Shown: one piece after another, positions 2,527 to 60,825 of the stretch
Numbering within the stretch: position 1 is the stretch's first letter
Layout: each line of letters begins with the position of its first letter
Source: an uncultured Erysipelotrichaceae bacterium
GTDB taxonomy: Bacteria > Bacillota_I > Bacilli_A > RF39 > UBA660
DNA length: 64,000 bases
Assembly (NCBI GenBank): GCA_902767245.1
Contig: CACXGO010000029.1
Coordinates: 31,598-95,597 of the forward strand
Direction: 5' to 3'
Notes under the pieces: model-generated
What the model saw: the letters and a program-made list of their open reading frames with translations, nothing else
Database searches by the model: none
Told to the model about the DNA's origin: nothing
Made by a program: the position numbers and the translations under genes

Positions 2527-4164
2527 TTATTTATTACTTTCTTCAAAAAAATTAATTCTTTTTATGATTCTTTCTTTACCTAAATTTTTTAGAATTTCAT
2601 ATAAATCTGGTGTCATTGTTAAACTTGTTACAGCTACTCTAATTGCTTCACAAATGTCTCCAATTGAACCAACGTATTTTTCTGGTTCTTGTTTATAAGC
2701 TTTTGTTTCAGCGGCATAACCATATTTTGGTGCAAGTTCTTTTATTTTATTAAACCATTCTTCTTTTGAGTCAGATTCATTATAATAATTATTTACATAA
2801 TCTTTTAAAAGTTCAATATTATATTTTTTTTCAAGATTAAATTTAGCTTCTTTAAAATATAGCTCATCAAACATATACCAAGTGAATTTTCTAACATCTT
2901 CATATGCTGAAATATCTCTTCTTGGGCGTGGTATTTCTCTTTCAATATTTAAAACATTAATCATATATTCTTTGTATTTTTTCAATAATTCATGAAATTC
3001 TAAATCGTATTTTTCTGTATATTCTAATACACCTTCATATAATTTGGAAGCTTTAAGTGCACTAAAATATACTTTAGAAATACTTATAAGTTTTTGAATA
3101 TCAAACAAAGTTCCACCAATTGGGCACTTATCAAATTCAAATTCAAAATCATTTATTCCTTTATCAGGATTTTGCAAATACCACGATTCAAAAGTTGAAT
3201 TATTTATAGTTGCAAGATAAAGATCAATAACTTCGGTTGGAATTCCCTTTTGATGATAGTAACTTACTGCAGCCCATGGATCTTTACGTTTTGATATTTT
3301 TCTAACAGTATTTCCTTCTTTTACTGTCAAAGGTGAAATATGGGCATATGCTGGCATTTCAAAACCCAAAACTTTAAACAATTGTTCATGAACATTCCAA
3401 GAAGAAACCCATTCATCACCACGAATTACATTAGTTGTATGCATCAAATGGTCATCAACTGCATGAGCAAAATGATATGTTGGTAAATTGTCAGATTTTA
3501 AAATAACAATGTCCATATCATTTTCAGGCATTTCAATATTACCTTTTATTAAATCATGTAAAACTACTTTATTATTAAAATTGCCTGGGGATTTAAGACG
3601 AATTATGTATTTTTCACCATTTTTAACTTTTTCAATTGCTTCTTCCATAGTTAATGAACGACATTTTGCCCATGTACCATAGTAACCAATTCTTGCTTTT
3701 TCAAGTTCCTGAATGTTTCTTGTTTCTTCTAATTCTTCAGGTGTACAAAAACATGGATATGCTTTATCTTCCTCTATTAATTTTCGAACATAAGCGCGAT
3801 AAATGTCACCTCTTTCACTTTGAACATAAGGGCCATAATTTCCTCCAAAAGAAGGTCCTTCATTAAAGTTGATACCCAAATTTTTAAAGTCGTTAACAAT
3901 TCCTTCAATTCCATTTTCAACTTCACGCTTTTGATCAGTATCTTCAATACGTAACATTGCAATTCCATTAGTTTGTCTTGCCATAACTAAATCTACAAAT
4001 GAAGCATATAAACTCCCCATATGAACAAAGCCTGTTGGACTTGGGGCAAATCTAGTTACCATTTCTCCTACTTTTAAATCTCTTTTTGGATATTTTTCTT
4101 CATAATAATTAACATCATGCTCTACATTTGGTACAAGTAATTCACTATATTCTTTTCTTGTCAT
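2527..4164 (-). CDS. gltX: Glutamyl-tRNA synthetase
   Basis: RFAPSPTGFVHMG HIGH-region, KISKRK KMSKS-region, and the CFCTPEELE motif typical of bacterial GluRS. Confidence 0.9.
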   Translation of the reverse strand: MTRKEYSELLVPNVEHDVNYYEEKYPKRDLKVGEMVTRFAPSPTGFVHMGSLYASFVDLVMARQTNGIAMLRIEDTDQKREVENGIEGIVNDFKNLGINFNEGPSFGGNYGPYVQSERGDIYRAYVRKLIEEDKAYPCFCTPEELEETRNIQELEKARIGYYGTWAKCRSLTMEEAIEKVKNGEKYIIRLKSPGNFNNKVVLHDLIKGNIEMPENDMDIVILKSDNLPTYHFAHAVDDHLMHTTNVIRGDEWVSSWNVHEQLFKVLGFEMPAYAHISPLTVKEGNTVRKISKRKDPWAAVSYYHQKGIPTEVIDLYLATINNSTFESWYLQNPDKGINDFEFEFDKCPIGGTLFDIQKLISISKVYFSALKASKLYEGVLEYTEKYDLEFHELLKKYKEYMINVLNIEREIPRPRRDISAYEDVRKFTWYMFDELYFKEAKFNLEKKYNIELLKDYVNNYYNESDSKEEWFNKIKELAPKYGYAAETKAYKQEPEKYVGSIGDICEAIRVAVTSLTMTPDLYEILKNLGKERIIKRINFFEESNK

Positions 4165-4165
4165 A

Positions 4166-4335
4166 AAATCATTCCTTTCTAAAATAAAAAAACTCTATCC
4201 TGTTTAAGGACGAGTTTTCCCGTGGTACCACCTTATTTTATAGTATTGCTACTACCTTAATATCGTTAACGCCGATAAACAATAAGCTCTAAAGTTTCTT
4301 CAAAATGACTATTTATTAATTTCCATCAAACATTA
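4166..4335 (-). promoter_or_regulatory. T-box riboswitch leader of gltX, with terminator/antiterminator
   Basis: Reverse strand contains AAGGTGGTACCACGGG (T-box consensus AGGGTGGNACCGCG; its UGGU is complementary to the ACCA end of the adjacent tRNA-Glu). A hairpin CTCGTCCTTAAACAGGATAGAG plus U-tract follows immediately before the gltX RBS. Confidence 0.55.
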
Positions 4336-4379
4336 ACTTTCTATAAAATAGTTTAATTTTTACTCTTCTTTTTCACTGC

Positions 4380-4823
4380 TTATAAATTTTCTAAATTTTT
4401 CTTTATAATTGAGTTTACTAAACTCATATCTGCTTTTCCTTTTACTAAAGGTGCAATTTCTCTCATTATCTTGCCAATATCACTAGGTCCAGTTGGATTT
4501 ACCTTTGCAAAAACTTCTTTAACAAGTTTTTCAATTTCGGTTTCTTCCATCATTTTTGGCATATATACATTTAATACTTCAATTTCCTTATTATTTTGTT
4601 CTACTAAATCAGTTCTGCCTGCTTTTTCAAATTCAACATTTGCTTCTTTTCTTGTTTTAATTTGTTTAGACAAAATAGAAACTAATTCAGCATCTTCTAA
4701 ACTTCTTCCTTTTGCTATTTCATCCATTTGAATAGCGGCTTTAACCATTCTAATTACGGCCAACTTTGTCTTATCTTGACTTTTCATTGCCGCTTTTAAA
4801 TCTTCCATTAATCTTTCTTTCAT
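4380..4823 (-). CDS. yqeY: GatB/YqeY domain protein
   Basis: 147 aa, typical YqeY-like sequence and the usual position upstream of rpsU. Confidence 0.8.
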   Translation of the reverse strand: MKERLMEDLKAAMKSQDKTKLAVIRMVKAAIQMDEIAKGRSLEDAELVSILSKQIKTRKEANVEFEKAGRTDLVEQNNKEIEVLNVYMPKMMEETEIEKLVKEVFAKVNPTGPSDIGKIMREIAPLVKGKADMSLVNSIIKKNLENL

Positions 4824-7367: not shown

Positions 7368-7756
7368 TAAATCACTCCTTTCATATATTTTTGATATAAA
7401 TAATCCCATATATTAGTTTCTTTACCCAGCCCAATATGTAATTCCAAAATATATTTTGATTTATCATAATCAAAATTTATCTTAACATTCCTTTTTAAAG
7501 TATTTTCGTGCAAAATATAATTACTTGAAACTTCTACTATCTTATAATCTTGAATGCTTTTGTCATATTTTAATTTATAGTTTAAATTAGTTATTTCTTG
7601 ATCAGTTAAAAAAATATTAACATAGCTTTCATTTACTTCTCCATATATTAACTTATATGGTTGATATGAGAAAAAAAATAAAGATAATAAAACAAGAAAT
7701 AAAATAATAAATGCTATTAAAAACAAATTGGTGACTCTATTTTCAATATAAGACAT
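7367..7756 (-). CDS. Small membrane-anchored protein in the bacteriocin operon (putative accessory or immunity protein)
   Basis: 129 aa with one N-terminal TM helix and a soluble domain. Its stop overlaps the peptide 1 start and its start overlaps the ABC transporter end. Confidence 0.4.
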   Translation of the reverse strand: MSYIENRVTNLFLIAFIILFLVLLSLFFFSYQPYKLIYGEVNESYVNIFLTDQEITNLNYKLKYDKSIQDYKIVEVSSNYILHENTLKRNVKINFDYDKSKYILELHIGLGKETNIWDYLYQKYMKGVI

Positions 7757-9794
7757 CTTCTTTTATCTCTCCTTTTTCTAATTTTACAAAATGATCAAAT
7801 AAATCTATATTGTTTAATCGATGAGAAATGACTATTATTGTTTTTTCTTTATATTTGCCAAAAATATTTTTTAAAATTTTTCTTTCTAAAGATATATCTA
7901 ATTGATTTGTTCCTTCATCAATTAAAATTATTTTACTATTAGTCAAAATAGTTCTGGCCAAAATTATTCTTTGTCTTTCACCACCACTTAGATTAAAACC
8001 ATTTTCTTCAATCAAAGTATTTAAACCTAAATCATTTTTTGCTATTTTATTGACACTACATAATAGTGAAGCTTCAATAATTTTATTAGGATTAATGTTA
8101 CGATATAAATCTATATTTTCATAAATTGTATCTGTAAATAACATCTCATTTTGAGCAAGATAAGAAACACATGAAATTGCTTTATTACTGTAATCGTTGA
8201 TATCAATACCATTTATAAAAACCATCTCATTTTTCACTTTTAAATATTTTTTTAATATTTTTAAAAGTGTTGATTTGCCAGAACCACTTTCACCTACCAA
8301 TAAAACTTTTTCACCTTCATTAATAGTTAAATAAATATGCTTTAATATTTCTTCATCACCATAACTATAATTAAGATCTTTAATGAGAATATCAGACTTT
8401 TTAATTTTTTCTATTTTTCCTGAATTTTCTATTTTATAATCAAGTTCCAAAGCTCTTTTTAAGGTATTAATACTTTCCTCGAGTTCACTACTACTATCTA
8501 AAATATTTTTAATTGGATTCATAAAATTAGAATATAAAAAAGTAAATGTAATTAATGCCCCAATGATTAAAGTACCACTTTCTATTTCTAAAATGCCAAG
8601 GAAAATAATTACTAATATTGATATTTCACTGATTAAATCTTTAAAAAAGGTTTCCCAATTAATGCTTTTTGCATATTTTAAAATACTATCAACAAAACCA
8701 TAATAAAGTTGTTTATATTTTTTTATGATTTCATTTTCGATTTTTAAGCCTTTTACACATTCATAAGAACTTATTGATTCAACTAAAAAGGAAGTATTTT
8801 TTTCTCTTAACCTTTGATATTCCTTAATTTTATATTTAAATTTTCCTCTAAAAAAAGCAACTATTATTACATATAAAGTTAAGAATAATAAAGTATATGT
8901 TGTTAATTTAAAACTCAAATTAAACATAACAATTAAAGATAGTATAATTAAAGGAATATTTGAAAATAAAATAATTATAATTTTACTTATAAATGTTTTT
9001 ATTAGTTCTAAATCAGTAATTCTTGAAATAATTTCACCCGTTGTTCGATTACAATAATAAATATAAGGGAAATGAATTATTTTGGCATAAAATTCATTTG
9101 TTAATTCATATGACACTTTCTTATTTAAATAAATGCTCAAAAGATTGCTTAAGTAAGTACTAATCACCTTAAATATTGCTAATGATATAAATATAATTAA
9201 AAATATATATTTTAATCGATAATCATAAGAAATACTTGAAATAAAGGTATTAAATGAAAAAGACAAAATAATAATAAGAATATTTGTAAAAAATGAAATT
9301 AAAGATATTTTAATAATTGAGGTTTTATTTATTTTAAGAAAGTTGGTAATGAAATTTAGAATTGAATAATTCTTAAGATAAGGAATTTTTTTATTTTGAT
9401 AAAATAATATATAAACATTATTTGATATTTTATTAAAGTCTTCAAATTTCATCTTTTTTATTCCGTTAGCAGGATCAGCAATCAAAATTGTCTCTTTTTT
9501 TAAATTAATTTCATAAATTACCACAAAATGATTGAATTTTTTATCAATTGTTACATAAGCAATACATGGCAATTTTAAATTAGAAATATCATCAGTTTTT
9601 ATGGCTTTTGTTTGAAAGCCAATATATTCTGCGACTTTTATAATACTAAATGCTGAAGTCCCTTCTTTATTTGTTTCAAGCATATCTCTTAATTGTTCTT
9701 GTGATATATAACCTTTATAATATCTAATTATCATTGAAAGCGTTGCAACTGCACAATCTTTTACTCCCTCTTGTTTTACAAATGGATATTTCAT
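7743..9794 (-). CDS. Bacteriocin-processing ABC transporter with N-terminal C39 peptidase domain (ComA/LagD/SunT family)
   Basis: N-terminal DCAVATLSMIIRYYKG (C39 catalytic Cys) and NHFVVIY (His). Six TM helices. Walker A GESGSGKST, ABC signature LSGGERQR, Walker B ILIDEGT. Confidence 0.85.
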   Translation of the reverse strand: MKYPFVKQEGVKDCAVATLSMIIRYYKGYISQEQLRDMLETNKEGTSAFSIIKVAEYIGFQTKAIKTDDISNLKLPCIAYVTIDKKFNHFVVIYEINLKKETILIADPANGIKKMKFEDFNKISNNVYILFYQNKKIPYLKNYSILNFITNFLKINKTSIIKISLISFFTNILIIILSFSFNTFISSISYDYRLKYIFLIIFISLAIFKVISTYLSNLLSIYLNKKVSYELTNEFYAKIIHFPYIYYCNRTTGEIISRITDLELIKTFISKIIIILFSNIPLIILSLIVMFNLSFKLTTYTLLFLTLYVIIVAFFRGKFKYKIKEYQRLREKNTSFLVESISSYECVKGLKIENEIIKKYKQLYYGFVDSILKYAKSINWETFFKDLISEISILVIIFLGILEIESGTLIIGALITFTFLYSNFMNPIKNILDSSSELEESINTLKRALELDYKIENSGKIEKIKKSDILIKDLNYSYGDEEILKHIYLTINEGEKVLLVGESGSGKSTLLKILKKYLKVKNEMVFINGIDINDYSNKAISCVSYLAQNEMLFTDTIYENIDLYRNINPNKIIEASLLCSVNKIAKNDLGLNTLIEENGFNLSGGERQRIILARTILTNSKIILIDEGTNQLDISLERKILKNIFGKYKEKTIIVISHRLNNIDLFDHFVKLEKGEIKEDVLY

Positions 9795-18194: not shown

Positions 18195-18830
18195 TTAAGC
18201 GCTTAAACTGTTTCTTAGTTTTACTAATATTTTTTGTTCTTGACGCGAAATGCCAGTCTGATTAGTATTAAAGTAATGAGCTATTTCCGTCTGCGTCCTA
18301 TCTGAATAATAGCGCAGCTCGATTAATTTCTTTTCATCAGCATTTAGTTTAGCAATTGATTCTCTTAACATTATGACATTATCAACATTTTCCTCTTTAG
18401 AAGGTATAACTTCATATAGTGAAAATGTTTCATCATCATTTAATGAGTCATCTAAACTCTTAATCGGATTTAATGAATTAATAGCTTCATTAATTGAATT
18501 CTCATCAATTTCTAAAAATTCAGCTATTTCCTTTTTAGATGGTTCGCGCATTAATTTTTGAGACAATAAAATAATTGCTTTATTTATTTTATAATTTAAT
18601 AAACTTATTTCGCGACTTACTTTTATACTCTTATCTTCACGAATATATTTTCTTATCTCTCCCAATATATAAGTATATGCATATGAAGAAAATTTAACAT
18701 TTAAATCACTTTTATAATTTTTATAAGCTTTTATAAGTCCAATACAACCTACTTGAAATAAATCTTCCTTGCTATGGAAATTAGGGAAATAACTGATTAT
18801 TGAATAAATAAGTTTTTGATTTTTTTTTAT
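18195..18830 (-). CDS. sigF: Sporulation sigma factor of the SigF/SigG/SigB family; 5' end uncertain (no in-frame ATG/GTG/TTG upstream of the conserved region 2; open frame extends to 18863)
   Basis: Hand translation upstream of the track ORF gives ...LIKKNQKLIYSIISYFPNFHSKEDLFQVGCIGLIKAYKNYKSDLNVKFSSYAYTYILGEIRKYIREDKSIKVSREIS... This matches SigF/G regions 2.1-2.4 (DLFQIGCIGLLK...VKFSTYAVPMIIGEIQRFIRDDGTVKVSRS). Region 4 follows (LIELRYYSDRTQTEIAHYFNTNQTGISRQEQKIL). Position is after spoIIAA and before spoVAC. Confidence 0.65.
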   Translation of the reverse strand: MKKNQKLIYSIISYFPNFHSKEDLFQVGCIGLIKAYKNYKSDLNVKFSSYAYTYILGEIRKYIREDKSIKVSREISLLNYKINKAIILLSQKLMREPSKKEIAEFLEIDENSINEAINSLNPIKSLDDSLNDDETFSLYEVIPSKEENVDNVIMLRESIAKLNADEKKLIELRYYSDRTQTEIAHYFNTNQTGISRQEQKILVKLRNSLSA

Positions 18831-18838
18831 TAATTCAC

Positions 18839-19168
18839 TCAGCTCTTCGTTAATATTGTATATTCATCTTCTCTTTCTTTTATATGTTTAAGTAAAAACT
18901 TAAATTTTTTTCTTAAAAATTTTGGTATTTCACATAAAGAAATATCGCTTTTTTTATTTAGCTTTAAATATGTCTTATAAAAAGCTAAAAGGCCATATTT
19001 ATCAATAGTATTTAACTTTGATACATTAAATACTACATTAGAAATGCCATTTTCTAATACTAAAGGATCAATTTTTTCATCAAGTAGTTTGCTTGTTTTT
19101 TTTATAACATCACCTTTTAATCTTATAAAAAGTATTCCTTTTTTAAATTTAAAATCATAATCAAGCAA
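18839..19168 (-). CDS. spoIIAA: Anti-sigma-factor antagonist-like STAS protein (SpoIIAA-like), lacking the phosphorylatable serine
   Basis: Aligns with SpoIIAA (LFIRLKGDV... / VVFNVSKLNTIDKYGLLAFYK vs [22 protein letters not shown]). The DSSG phospho-site is replaced by DKYG. Confidence 0.55.
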   Translation of the reverse strand: MLDYDFKFKKGILFIRLKGDVIKKTSKLLDEKIDPLVLENGISNVVFNVSKLNTIDKYGLLAFYKTYLKLNKKSDISLCEIPKFLRKKFKFLLKHIKEREDEYTILTKS

Positions 19169-27505: not shown

Positions 27506-28237
27506 TTATAAATTTTTTAAAGTTCTAATAAACTCTTTCGATTTTAAATAAAGACCTGTATATCGATCATAATAATCATCTAAAAAGTCATTTATTTCAT
27601 TCTTTATTTTATCACTAACATTTATTTTTTCTAAAGATTCAATATCTACATAATAGTAAGCCCTAATTAATTTTAAAGCTTTCTCACTAACAATTTTATC
27701 ATTATGATAGCAATTTTTACAAAGAAATCCTCCTGCTGATGCTGATAAGGTTAAAATATTCACCTTCGAACCACAGATGGCACAACTATCAATAACTGGC
27801 ATAACACCTAAAAAATCTAAATATTTTAGTTCTAAAATATTCATAATTACAAGACCATCATAACCATTATTTATTTTTAAAATTGCTTGAATTACTAAAT
27901 CATAAACTTTTTCATTAAAATGTTCTTTAGAAACTTGTTCTGCAAGTTCTAATATATAACTCACATAACTAATTTTATTAATATCAGTTTTTACATTTTT
28001 TAAGCTATTAATTATTGTTGCATTTATTAGTGTTGATATTTTATTTTCTTTATACTGAATATTAAACTTAGCATAAGTTAGCTTTTCTGAAACGACTCTA
28101 AGATCACTTTTAAGTCTCTTAGCTCCTTTTGCCATAACATTTATAAGTCCATATTCACGAGTCAAAATTGTAAGAAGTTTACTAGTTTCCGAATATGGTC
28201 TCTCACAAATAATAATTCCTTCTACTTCTTTGATAAT
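27506..28237 (-). CDS. recO: DNA repair protein RecO; inferred ATT (or ATA/ATC) start
   Basis: C4 zinc finger CAICGS...CKNC. The conserved N-terminal OB strand (I)IKEVEGIIICERPYSETSKLLTILTREYG is encoded in frame upstream of the track TTG start. Only ATA-ATT-ATC lie between the upstream TAG and IKEVEG. AGGAAA RBS is 4-7 nt upstream. Confidence 0.7.
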   Translation of the reverse strand: MIKEVEGIIICERPYSETSKLLTILTREYGLINVMAKGAKRLKSDLRVVSEKLTYAKFNIQYKENKISTLINATIINSLKNVKTDINKISYVSYILELAEQVSKEHFNEKVYDLVIQAILKINNGYDGLVIMNILELKYLDFLGVMPVIDSCAICGSKVNILTLSASAGGFLCKNCYHNDKIVSEKALKLIRAYYYVDIESLEKINVSDKIKNEINDFLDDYYDRYTGLYLKSKEFIRTLKNL

Positions 28238-28323
28238 TATTTCCTACTTTCTTTTTTCCATTTTAAATAATATTCAATTTTTCCAGTGTTTTTAAATAAA
28301 TCCCATAAAAGTTCTTTATCCAT
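28237..28323 (-). CDS. yqzL: YqzL-family small protein (28 aa); not in the ORF track
   Basis: MDKELLWDLFKNTGKIEYYLKWKKESRK lies between era and recO, exactly where Bacillus yqzL sits; its stop overlaps the recO start. Confidence 0.45.
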   Translation of the reverse strand: MDKELLWDLFKNTGKIEYYLKWKKESRK

Positions 28324-56982: not shown

Positions 56983-57918
56983 TTACGCTTTTTTCTTGAT
57001 TTTACTATTTATAATCAAATAAAATATAAACATAACAATTGCTATAATCATACTTCCAAGTCCATATTCAACCATCAATGTACTCATTTTCTTGGCAATA
57101 GGATCAATTATATCATTAAACTTTTCTGCATCTATTAAACTGGTTATAAGTTGAATTCCAAAAAGACCTAAAGCGGAAAACAAAATACCATTAAGAATCG
57201 TTGGAACACTGACCCAAATAAGCCATTTATATAAGCTTTTTCTTGATAACATTAAAAGAACAATTGCTAAAATAATAAATATGCTAATGGTAATTGGGTT
57301 AAAATTAATAATATCTTTTAAAATCTCACTTTCCTTAAGTTCTGGTATTTTTATTTCTTCTCTTACTTCATCAAATTTTTCTTTTACATCTTCATAATTA
57401 TCTTCAACAAACTCATCAATGTTTGCTTCAGTATATCTAGAAACTGCTTTTATTTTTTTCAATGATTTATAATTTTTTTTGACAAATGATTTTATTTCTT
57501 CTTTAGTTGGATATTTTATTTCAGAATCCTTAATTTGATTTAATATTGCTGATTCTAAATAGTTATTTACAATTGATTTGAATTCATCATCTTGAATAAT
57601 CTCTTCTGCTTCTTTTTCAGTAAATCCCGCATTTTCTAAATAATTCTTTATTTTTCCTTTAATTGAAGCATAATTAATTTTAATATCATCATTATAAGTG
57701 ATATTGTTACCAAAGGTTTGTTCAGAAGCAAATGTTATTATAGTTTCTCTATTTTGATTATTATAAGTCATTAATTTTTGAATTATGTCACTGATGTTAT
57801 CTTTAGTAACAAAACTATTTATTATTAAATTAAAGACTAGTATTATTTCTAAAATAAACATCAAAATTGATATTATTGTTGCTATTAGGATTCCAGCAAC
57901 ATTTAAAAACTTCTTCAA
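56983..57918 (-). CDS. Membrane protein, paralog A of a tandem three-gene family (unknown function)
   Basis: N-terminal TM, ~200 aa charged middle, C-terminal two-TM module RKSLYKWLIWVSVPTILNG... Confidence 0.4.
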   Translation of the reverse strand: MKKFLNVAGILIATIISILMFILEIILVFNLIINSFVTKDNISDIIQKLMTYNNQNRETIITFASEQTFGNNITYNDDIKINYASIKGKIKNYLENAGFTEKEAEEIIQDDEFKSIVNNYLESAILNQIKDSEIKYPTKEEIKSFVKKNYKSLKKIKAVSRYTEANIDEFVEDNYEDVKEKFDEVREEIKIPELKESEILKDIINFNPITISIFIILAIVLLMLSRKSLYKWLIWVSVPTILNGILFSALGLFGIQLITSLIDAEKFNDIIDPIAKKMSTLMVEYGLGSMIIAIVMFIFYLIINSKIKKKA

Positions 57919-58006
57919 ACTATATCACCTATTATAATAATTTTAATTCATTATAGTTTTTATAGTCAATTTAAGTTTACAAATTAGTTTACAAAAAAAA
58001 GCTTTT

Positions 58007-58927
58007 TTAAGCTTTTTCTGGTTCTTCTTTTGTTTCAATTATTTTTTTATTTTCTTTTGAATTTTTTGTTGCTTTATCTATAACAACATATATTATCAAT
58101 GCTAGAATTCCAAGAATAATCTCTAAGATTCCAAAAAGGCGCATATTTTTTAATATATCTTCAATTATTGGATTTAATACAAATTCATATTTATTAAAAT
58201 TAGCAAATATATTTATAATACCTTTACCTATAAAGCCACCAACTATTAAAATTGCTCCATTAATAATTGTTGGAATACTAATCCATTTAAGCCATCTATG
58301 AAAGCTCTTTCTTAAAGCAATTAGTAATACAACACATAAAATCAAACCACCAATAATAAGAATTGTTTTTGTTGACATTATTGTTTTAATTAAATCAATA
58401 TGCTCAATTTGATCAAATTTTATATCTTTAGCAAGTTCATTTAATTCATATTTAACATTTCCATAATTTTCATCAACTATTTTTTCAATTTCTGATTGCT
58501 TATAATCTTTAGGAAATTTACTTACATTTTGAAAATGCTTATAATTTCTATGAATAAAATTAACTAATTCAGATTTTTTTGGATAAATTACTTCTGTTCC
58601 TGTTACTCCATTCATAAACATTGAACCAAGATAATTTCCAATTATCTTTTTGAAACTTTTATCTTTGACAACAGAATCAACTTGAACTCGTGTAAGACCT
58701 ATATCATCTAAATAATGATAAATTCTAGTTCCCATCGCTGTTTCCTTACCATTTTCATCGCGGAAAAGTCTTTCAATATCAATTTCTTCCATAATTTCGG
58801 ACAAATTTTCAACTTCCATTGTTTTGTTAACTGGACGTTCAATACCTAGTAAAAATTCAAGCGCAAAAAATGCAATTATCACAATTACTGATAAAAATAT
58901 ACATAATGTATTAAGACCTTTTTTCAT
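58007..58927 (-). CDS. Membrane protein, paralog B of the tandem family
   Basis: Same architecture; RKSFHRWLKWISIPTIING... Confidence 0.4.
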   Translation of the reverse strand: MKKGLNTLCIFLSVIVIIAFFALEFLLGIERPVNKTMEVENLSEIMEEIDIERLFRDENGKETAMGTRIYHYLDDIGLTRVQVDSVVKDKSFKKIIGNYLGSMFMNGVTGTEVIYPKKSELVNFIHRNYKHFQNVSKFPKDYKQSEIEKIVDENYGNVKYELNELAKDIKFDQIEHIDLIKTIMSTKTILIIGGLILCVVLLIALRKSFHRWLKWISIPTIINGAILIVGGFIGKGIINIFANFNKYEFVLNPIIEDILKNMRLFGILEIILGILALIIYVVIDKATKNSKENKKIIETKEEPEKA

Positions 58928-58940
58928 ATTTTTACATCTC

Positions 58941-59843
58941 CTATCCCAAAGCCTCTTCTAATTTTTGATCTTCTTCTTTTTCTTTTTTCTTCTTTTTTTT
59001 CAATAATATCTTTATTATTGTATGAATTATAAAAGAAGACACACTAATAATCAAGAGTATTATACCATATTTAACCATACTTTTTGTAAAATATGCTACA
59101 AATGGTTCAACTAAAAATAGAAATTTCAACTTTTCAGCTATACTTTGCACTAAATTAGTTGCAAATGAACCAATTATTATAAACAAAAGTGATACTGGAA
59201 GTGTTACTACAGAAATCCACATCAACCATTTATATAAACTTGCTCTAAAAATAATTATCAAAATTATACAAATAGCAATGGCTGCTTCTAGTATATAAAC
59301 AGCACCTTTTCTAAATAAATTAGCAACCGTTTTTAAGTTTTCAAATCCTGATAAATCAATACTATCAGAAAAATTATTAACTAAATCATTTATAAATTCG
59401 TAATTTTTATGAACTATTTTATAAATATCTTCACGAGTCGTACTAAAGAAAAATATTTTTTTAACATATTCTAAATTGTTATAAATGAAATCAGTTATTT
59501 CATCTTCACTAGGCAGTTTAATCTCAAAACCATCGATTTTATTTAAAATTTTAGATCCAAGATTCTCACCCAAAATATTTTTAAATTGAACTTTATCTAA
59601 AAATGTATAAATCTTTTCTTTTGATAAACCAACTTTTGATAAATATGTATATATTTTTGGTTCACCATTTTCATCATTCATAATTTCATTAATTGGAATT
59701 TCAGATATTGTTTCTTTTAATGTATCATATGTAAAAAACTCACTTGTTGGAATTGCAATTCCAAGTCCTATAAGTAAAAAGAATAAAAATGTTACAACTG
59801 TGTAAGATACTGAAAGCCCAAATTTATCTAATACCTTTTTAAT
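58941..59843 (-). CDS. Membrane protein, paralog C of the tandem family; inferred ATT start 2 nt after the trpS stop
   Basis: Track ORF starts at MNDENGEP, but the frame is open upstream and encodes IKKVLDKFGLSVSYTVVTFLFFLLIGLGIAI, the counterpart of MKKFLN.../MKKGLN... plus the N-terminal TM helix of paralogs A/B. There is no in-frame ATG/GTG/TTG; ATT sits at the position of the paralogs' ATG. Confidence 0.4.
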   Translation of the reverse strand: MKKVLDKFGLSVSYTVVTFLFFLLIGLGIAIPTSEFFTYDTLKETISEIPINEIMNDENGEPKIYTYLSKVGLSKEKIYTFLDKVQFKNILGENLGSKILNKIDGFEIKLPSEDEITDFIYNNLEYVKKIFFFSTTREDIYKIVHKNYEFINDLVNNFSDSIDLSGFENLKTVANLFRKGAVYILEAAIAICIILIIIFRASLYKWLMWISVVTLPVSLLFIIIGSFATNLVQSIAEKLKFLFLVEPFVAYFTKSMVKYGIILLIISVSSFIIHTIIKILLKKKKKKEKEEDQKLEEALG

Positions 59844-59844
59844 A

Positions 59845-60825
59845 CTACCTCACTACCCCTACTTTTTCACGCATTGTCTGATATTTTTTATATGCTAATG
59901 CACTAGCTTTTTTAGCACCTTCATCTAATATTGAATCAAGCTCTTTACTATTAACTAATTTATTGTATTTTTCTTGAATATTGCCTATTACTTCAACAAC
60001 TAAATCAGCAACATAACTTTTAAATTCACCATAATTTTTACCTTTAAACATTGTTTCAACTTCATTAATACTTTTACCTGTAAGTGAAACTACAATATTG
60101 ATTAAATTACTTATACCTGGTTTCTTTTCTTCATCATAGATGATATTCATTTCTGAATCTGTTGTCGCAGACATTATCTTTTTACGAATAATTTTTATAT
60201 CATCAAATAAAGATATAACACCAGCTGGATTTTCATCAGACTTACTCATTTTTTTGGTTGGATCTTTTAAATCTTTTATTTTGGTTCCTGATTTAGTAAT
60301 AAGTGGTTCTGGAACTTTAAAAATTTCACCATATTTTTTATTAAAACGAATTGCAATATCACGAGCAAGTTCAACATGTTGTTTTTGATCAATACCAACT
60401 GGAACTAAATCTGTATCAGCATATAAAATATCTGCTGCCATCAATACCGGATATGTTAAAAGTCCAACTGAAAAATTAGCATTTTCTTTTGATTTTTCTT
60501 TGAATTGAATCATTCTGGAAGCTTCGCCATAATATGTTGAACACTCTAATATCCAAGAAATACTAGGTATATATTCTATATCAGATTGAATATAAATTGT
60601 ATTTTTTTTAGGATCAATTCCACAAGCTATATACATAGCAATAAATGCACGAATGCGCTTTTTTAATTCTATTGGATTTTGAGGCACAGTGAGAGCATGT
60701 AAATCAGCAACAAAAATATATGATTCATACTCGTCCTGCATCTTTGTCATTTGTTTGATTGCTCCAATATAATTACCTAAAGTTAGATCCCCTGTTGGTT
60801 TTAAACCAGTAAGTATTCTTTTCAT
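59845..60825 (-). CDS. trpS: Tryptophanyl-tRNA synthetase
   Basis: TGLKPTGDLTLGNYIG (HIGH-like) and KMSKSD motifs. Confidence 0.9.
   Translation of the reverse strand: MKRILTGLKPTGDLTLGNYIGAIKQMTKMQDEYESYIFVADLHALTVPQNPIELKKRIRAFIAMYIACGIDPKKNTIYIQSDIEYIPSISWILECSTYYGEASRMIQFKEKSKENANFSVGLLTYPVLMAADILYADTDLVPVGIDQKQHVELARDIAIRFNKKYGEIFKVPEPLITKSGTKIKDLKDPTKKMSKSDENPAGVISLFDDIKIIRKKIMSATTDSEMNIIYDEEKKPGISNLINIVVSLTGKSINEVETMFKGKNYGEFKSYVADLVVEVIGNIQEKYNKLVNSKELDSILDEGAKKASALAYKKYQTMREKVGVVR

Follow-up and report, generated by a model that had tools for sequence, protein, structure and literature searches.

The recO gene on the minus strand of a 64,000-nucleotide (nt) stretch of contig CACXGO010000029.1, from an uncultured Erysipelotrichaceae bacterium (hereafter the window; 25.6% G+C), appears to be complete and functional, and is very probably translated from a near-cognate AUH codon (H being U, C or A), either AUU at 28237-28235 or AUC at 28234-28232. 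If initiated at the ATT, the coding sequence occupies 27506..28237 and comprises 243 codons followed by a TAA stop. Read 5′ to 3′ on the minus strand, its frame opens ...AAA AGA AAG TAG GAA ATA ATT ATC AAA GAA GTA GAA GGA ATT..., and codon reading bears out the start-less stretch described in the original prediction, with only GAA, ATA, ATT and ATC, and no ATG, GTG or TTG, between the in-frame TAG that closes the frame upstream (28244..28246, read from the sequence) and the conserved N-terminus IKEVEG. The ATA lies at 28238..28240, the ATT at 28235..28237 in the position of the homologues’ Met (MLKEVEG), and the ATC, which would give MKEVEG, at 28232..28234. The earliest ATG, GTG or TTG of the frame is a TTG at 28163..28165, 26 codons past the TAG, whose 219-amino-acid (aa) product would be without the first OB-fold strands, and the ATG of the database recO call is at 28133..28135, with a 209-aa product beginning MAKGAK... 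A database look-up of the 219-aa TTG product came back empty, since the gene is called there as the 209-aa ATG product.

The 25 codons upstream of the TTG are under purifying selection and evolve as coding sequence. Against Pfam RecO_N, the protein scores 61.6 bits with the extension (profile positions 5-79 of 80) vs 32.0 bits from the TTG (positions 26-79), and the complete N-terminal OB-fold domain of RecO is obtained only when the extension is included. The ATT-started protein matches the TIGR00613 RecO equivalog at 196.2 bits (cut-off 48.7), with residues 4-239 covering positions 2-238 of the 239 in the profile, and when it is aligned with E. coli RecO (3q8d), residue 8 of one stands opposite residue 8 of the other. 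The remainder of the product carries a Pfam RecO_C match (E = 4.8e-30) and keeps all four zinc-finger cysteines (CAIC...CKNC). At 243 aa, the ATT-started protein falls among its best 120 database homologues, 119 of which are 242-268 aa long; the sole short one, of 209 aa, is 99% identical and from the same species. Within this set, homologues at 74-85% identity open with ML[KTV]EVEGII, where the window recO has (I)IKEVEGII, and 21 of the 24 extension residues are identical to those of the protein from one related locus (L001). Measured against four relatives, the ratio of nonsynonymous to synonymous substitution rates (dN/dS) is 0.14-0.27 for codons 2-26 vs 0.08-0.18 for the remainder of the gene. 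Profile scores, homologue lengths and dN/dS thus agree with the earlier proposal that the upstream open frame encodes the conserved RecO N-terminal OB-fold.

The AGGAAA previously noticed ahead of recO was confirmed and forms part of a longer Shine-Dalgarno match, AGAAAGTAGG (28252-28243, minus strand), which agrees with AGAAAGGAGG at 9 of 10 positions. We computed duplex energies with an assumed Firmicutes-type 16S 3′ tail, not with the 16S of this genome. With this tail, AGAAAGTAGG forms a duplex of −9.4 kcal/mol, placing it in the 1st-5th percentile of same-strand ATH trinucleotide contexts; the downstream TTG at 28165 (+0.2 kcal/mol) has no Shine-Dalgarno sequence and the downstream ATG at 28135 (−3.3 kcal/mol) has essentially none. 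The recO Shine-Dalgarno sequence is also present ahead of the ATG in the related loci L001 and L028. Its core is separated from the ATT by 5 nt, from the ATC by 8 nt and from the ATA by 2 nt, and window genes with good Shine-Dalgarno matches show spacings of mostly 4-9 nt, most often 7. The ATA at 28240 was rejected as the recO start because it lies merely 2 nt from the core. A start at ATT or ATA had been proposed for this gene; the ATT part of that proposal stands, with the ATC as an equal candidate, and both would make acceptable starts, as MIKEVEG (from ATT) resembles the MLKEVEG of homologues and MKEVEG (from ATC) resembles the MIEVEG or MVEVEG of more distant ones.

The junction itself is found in more than one strain. 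Over 3101 nt, the window shows no difference from the Logan assembly of ERR3211447 (100% identity), although the two may share source data. A contig of run SRR33322345 (L010) differs from the window at 16 of 1687 positions (99.05% identity), and therefore represents another strain, and has an identical GTAGGAAATAATTATC junction; written in full, the sequence that the two share is GTAGGAAATAATTATCAAAG. This recurrence in a contig from a different run and a second strain effectively excludes the concern, raised with the original prediction, that an ATG had been miscalled as ATT.

Comparison with related species shows that the loss of the recO ATG is recent, specific to this species and caused by an indel. 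A metagenome scan with RecO returned five loci only. At the recO start, L001, L027 and L028, three relatives with 83-84% identity, have AGAAAG(T)AGGACAT ATG TTA AAA GAA, and elsewhere the start is ATG (L002 and L006), TTG (L003) or GTG (L005 and L029). L026 (82% identity) retains the small open reading frame (ORF) found upstream of recO in the window and reads ...AGG AAA AAA TAA TTTT ATG TTA AAA GAA. The distance from the TAA of this ORF to the Lys codon of recO is 5 nt shorter in the window than in L026, so the ATG was lost by an indel plus further substitutions. The change can be parsed in two ways: either ATT-ATC replaces ATG-TTA, or the ATC is the mutated ATG and the Leu codon has been deleted. 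Such alleles could plausibly arise under extreme AT pressure, which would turn the third-position G of an ATG into T, A or C and remove short spacers.

The small ORF is a 28-codon, YqzL-like frame (MDKELLWDLFKNTGKIEYYLKWKKESRK) between era and recO (28237..28323, minus strand). It has its own Shine-Dalgarno sequence, AGGTGA, 5 nt before its ATG, and it ends in its own frame with ...TGG AAA AAA GAA AGT AGG AAA TAA, the TAA (28239-28237) overlapping the recO ATT by one nucleotide, a shared A (TAATT). Its peptide is conserved in L003, L004, L005, L026 and L029 and is cleanly deleted in L001, L027 and L028. Searching its 28-aa product against Pfam and NCBIfam gave no match, and it falls below the length that most gene callers accept.

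These features can be combined into a probable course of events. The ancestral ATG would have been removed by a small indel in the spacer that separates yqzL from recO, which in the same step would have drawn the recO N-terminus up against the stop of the 28-codon ORF, creating UAAUU, an analogue of the common UAAUG overlap. The AUU or AUC would then be read by initiator tRNA as fMet, with initiation sustained by the strong, extended Shine-Dalgarno sequence at a functional spacing, and ribosomes that have just terminated on the small ORF might reinitiate in place at the AUH codon. The expected RecO output would be low, which may be tolerable for a low-abundance repair protein.

Two other genes in the window have a start of the same kind. 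The first is a SigF/SigG-like sigma factor gene (18195..18854, minus strand) whose ATT start at 18854-18852 was assigned by homologue alignment: homologues with canonical starts begin MNEELS, and their Met aligns with this ATT (I-N-E-E-L-S). Upstream of the first canonical start of the gene, the TTG at 18665, the frame runs on through 66 open codons to a TGA, and sigma70 region 2 lies wholly upstream of that TTG, so that a TTG start would delete it. Both the ATT and the start-less frame are kept in L011, L014, L017 and L031 (75-81% protein identity), which with the window makes five species. The ATT is 13 nt inside the 3′ end of the preceding SpoIIAA-like STAS gene (18839..19168, minus strand; TGA at 18841-18839), which overlaps the start of the sigma gene by 16 nt, and its Shine-Dalgarno sequence is weaker and more distant. 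The start-less gene indicated here by the original prediction is real and conserved across species, but the codons it had pointed to, 18863 and 18830, gave way to the ATT at 18854.

Several other codons near the sigma start were considered and rejected. Of the four relatives read, three have AAT or ACT in place of the ATA at 18863, and the ATA at 18830 is an Ile codon in all relatives read, inside the conserved ELIKKN. The TTA at 18833 encodes Leu, and gene callers start at this position only where TTG occurs. A conserved out-of-frame ATG at 18867 arises from GAT GAA, which encodes Asp-Glu at the STAS C-terminus, and leads into a dead-end frame of 5 codons.

As to the surroundings of this gene, the STAS gene is followed directly by the sigma gene (18195-19168, minus strand), with no gene for a SpoIIAB-type anti-sigma kinase between them, and then by spoVAC, spoVAD and spoVAE. 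This gene order is also found in L011, L014, L017 and L031. The sigma protein does not reach the NCBIfam cut-off for SigF, nor the STAS protein that for SpoIIAA. In two sigma homologues (P0121 and P0128), from two relatives, the upstream in-frame TGA has become a Trp codon and the calls are over-extended through the 3′ end of the STAS gene (241 and 244 aa), and Ile is still found at the position equivalent to the ATT.

The second gene encodes a membrane protein, paralog C (58941..59843, minus strand), whose ATT at 59843-59841 lies 1 nt past the TAG of trpS (59847-59845). It has 56 start-less open codons upstream of its first canonical start, and an in-frame TGA stands two codons upstream of the ATT position in all five species compared. 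Across these species the first codon is ATT (window), ATC (L020/L021 and L023) or ATA (L022 and L025), preceded by a conserved Shine-Dalgarno sequence, GTGAGG (59848..59853, minus strand), which lies inside the last trpS codons and gives −10.1 kcal/mol with a 4-nt spacer. The ATT aligns with the first codons of both neighbouring paralogs, as had been suggested, except that these are not both ATG: one starts with ATG at 58927 and the other with TTG at 57918. Nearly all non-self database homologues of paralog C (20 of 21) are called from assorted internal start codons. The three tandem paralogs are membrane proteins of ~300 aa encoded downstream of trpS (56983-59843, minus strand; first codons TTG, ATG and ATT). 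They had no Pfam or NCBIfam family, and the label ‘large-conductance mechanosensitive channel’ carried by one paralog homologue is unsupported here.

When every long ORF of the window was scanned for start-less upstream codons, recO (26), the sigma gene (66) and paralog C (56) stood out. The only other value above 21 was that of an ABC transporter gene (7743..9794), with 35 codons, and there the profile match begins at the ATG. For 18 further window genes with at least 10 start-less upstream codons, every usable NCBIfam match begins at or after the canonical start, the gaps in the window gene map yielded ordinary ORFs only, and ~100 kb of sequence flanking the relatives’ loci held no further AUH cases. 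AUH starts thus account for 3 of ~68 window genes (95% confidence interval 0.9-12%), a rate that, in this one window, is well above published baselines, which are 6 of 2265 core genes (~0.26%) with fixed non-canonical starts in Listeria monocytogenes (PMC13068326) and ~0.05% of the starts annotated for model genomes (10.1101/063800); with the Listeria rate, three or more cases have a binomial probability of ~8e-4. The three cases in 64 kb that the original prediction had counted are all real, and the ‘some frequency’ of AUU/AUA initiation that it had extended to the organism corresponds to these ~68 genes of one window, read from their DNA sequence. The sigma and paralog C starts are older than that of recO.

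The predicted truncation of such genes by gene callers can be seen directly in the database, where the calls are 209 aa for recO, 156 aa for the sigma gene and 246 aa for paralog C. These called proteins lose the first OB-fold strands of RecO, region 2 of the sigma factor and the first transmembrane helix of paralog C. Orthologues in many related metagenome assemblies are likewise truncated, and homology-aware calling that admits ATT, ATC and ATA would fix this.

All three AUH starts are located at junctions with a co-directional upstream gene, at −1 nt from its stop in recO (UAAUU), −16 nt in the sigma gene and +1 nt in paralog C. Junctions that tight make up 22 of 66 in the window, giving a chance probability for three out of three of ~0.03-0.04. 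This placement suggests coupled reinitiation, where a weak start codon may be acceptable to a ribosome that is already engaged with the mRNA. RNA folding showed the recO junction to be unstructured (z = +1.7), so any coupling would act by reinitiation and not by the melting of a hairpin. Overlapping gene pairs translated by termination-reinitiation have been described (PMC6728339, PMC10666635, PMC12548453), with overlaps such as ATGA and TAATG/TGATG. The window genes resemble them in their co-directional −1, −16 and +1 junctions, the UAAUU of recO having the one-base-overlap geometry of UAAUG. They differ in that the described pairs use canonical starts whereas the window genes have AUH codons, and the dependence of recO on its upstream ORF is our proposal.

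Several considerations weigh against translation of a functional recO from an AUH codon. Initiation at this codon is known here from sequence alone, in an uncultured organism. The ATT and the ATC are inseparable, as protein alignment favours the former, spacing favours the latter, and the DNA alignment with L026 is made ambiguous by indels; the anti-Shine-Dalgarno sequence was assumed, as stated above. The argument for coupling rests on three genes (p ~0.03), and the unstructured junction leaves no unmasking role to be argued for. Because the loss of the start is recent, recO could also be on its way to being lost, and it is conceivable, if improbable, that the gene is already decaying or non-functional, any product made from the downstream TTG or ATG being truncated and probably inactive. 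It fits such decay that the ATG is missing in this species only, being kept by relatives at 74-85% identity, and that the loss event involved an indel. The two strains differ in recO by 3 synonymous and 2 non-synonymous codon changes, a ratio that could be taken the same way, although these are too few to judge. Decay sits poorly, however, with a 243-codon frame kept intact by both strains in a 25.6% G+C genome, with an indel that kept the frame, the protein length and the Shine-Dalgarno sequence, and with downstream TTG and ATG codons that are both without one. The four zinc-finger cysteines and the full-length equivalog match also speak for a working protein, and two other window genes keep the same type of start across species.

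The remaining explanations concern the data, the reading frame and the translation machinery. A sequencing, assembly or polishing error concealing a true ATG has in its favour that the window and the ERR3211447 contigs are 100% identical and possibly derive from the same data, but we consider such an error extremely improbable: the run from the different strain (16 single-nucleotide differences in 1687 nt) carries the identical junction, the difference from the relatives consists of an indel plus substitutions and not of a single G-to-T change, there is no homopolymer at the site, and the sigma and paralog C starts are seen again in a number of species from different assembly projects. Just as improbable is the fusion of RecO to the small ORF through a programmed frameshift or a bypassed stop codon, which would make a start codon unnecessary. 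The two frames are adjacent and the TAA of the small ORF overlaps the first recO codons, but AGG AAA TAA, the one place available for such a shift, has no slippery heptamer, and re-pairing tRNA-Lys by +1 or by −1 does not reach the recO frame productively. Moreover, in L001, L027, L028, L002 and L006 the small ORF is either absent or well separated, and recO has its own ATG, GTG or TTG, while the analogous fusion at paralog C, of TrpRS to a membrane protein, would be biologically implausible; frameshifting or fusion was accordingly rejected for all three genes, on the absence of slippery sites and the implausible products. A broader possibility is a lineage-wide relaxation of start discrimination, through an altered IF3, initiator tRNA or 16S, that makes AUH initiation routine in the clade. 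The excess of AUH starts over the Listeria and model-genome rates, their long retention at two genes and the free interchange of ATT, ATC and ATA at paralog C would all be expected from it, but the recO start is canonical in every related species, the ~100 kb flanking the relatives’ loci held no new cases, and 18 other window genes are canonical wherever a profile is usable. No infC, initiator tRNA or 16S gene was found in the window or in the relatives’ loci examined. We regard such relaxation as unlikely, though less so than decay, error or fusion, and with a single window to hand we treat it as a possibility and not as a finding. In its widest form, which we also doubt, AUU, AUC and AUA would be routine and interchangeable starts for several percent of genes in this clade of ~25% G+C gut and rumen Bacilli, preferentially at reinitiation junctions, and gene calls would be truncated clade-wide.

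ATT, ATC and ATA are listed as rare alternative starts in translation tables 11 and 4 and are frequent in Mollicutes and organelles. The window resembles the users of these start sets in its AUH initiators, in its 25.6% G+C and in having database relatives labelled Mollicutes or Bacilli. TGA is used as a stop, for example in the STAS gene, and a tRNA-Trp(CCA) is present, so table 11 applies and not table 4.

The recO, sigma and paralog C starts are fresh examples of a known, rare phenomenon. In E. coli, initiation from AUU, AUC or AUA reaches roughly 1-2% of the AUG level (10.1101/063800). The closest likeness to recO there is provided by infC and pcnB, in which AUU takes the place of AUG after a Shine-Dalgarno sequence and supports low-level, IF3-sensitive initiation (cited in 10.1101/063800). 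The AUU of infC is an ancient autoregulatory device, whereas the AUH codon of recO appears recent and species-specific, may be AUU or AUC, and shows no sign of regulation. Listeria, likewise a member of the Bacilli, uses ATT, ATC and ATA as weak starts: its ATA and ATT starts yield protein at lower but still detectable levels, and the ATT of infC and the ATC of rnhC are confirmed by experiment (PMC13068326). Adaptive ATG-to-ATA/ATT mutations are known in Listeria rsbW (PMC13068326), where a non-canonical start in a partner-switching sigma-factor operon lowers the translation of one partner, a parallel to the sigF-like gene of the window with its overlapping STAS gene. The two cases differ in scale and in support, with ~0.26% of the core genome in Listeria, some of it verified, and an apparent ~4% in the window.

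Beyond adding to a known class, these genes are of interest for the persistence of AUH starts across species, for the interchange among AUH codons, for their association with stop/start junctions and for the truncation of the public calls. Together they make up a natural series, from a recent ATG loss (recO), through an AUU held in five species (the sigma gene), to the interchange of ATT, ATC and ATA without reversion (paralog C). Their placement at junctions makes the buffering of weak starts by coupled reinitiation testable, and they raise the question of whether extreme AT pressure and relaxed fidelity together increase the usage of near-cognate starts in this lineage.

Elsewhere in the window, a T-box leader (103 bits; 4203-4385, minus strand) lies upstream of the gene for glutamate--tRNA ligase (2527..4164); in the window, neither trpS nor glyQS was found to have a T-box upstream. 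In a translation that includes 10 extra upstream codons, the GltX profile match (2527-4164, minus strand) starts at residue 45, and the ATG-started protein therefore has an N-terminal extension of ~34 residues outside the bacterial equivalog.

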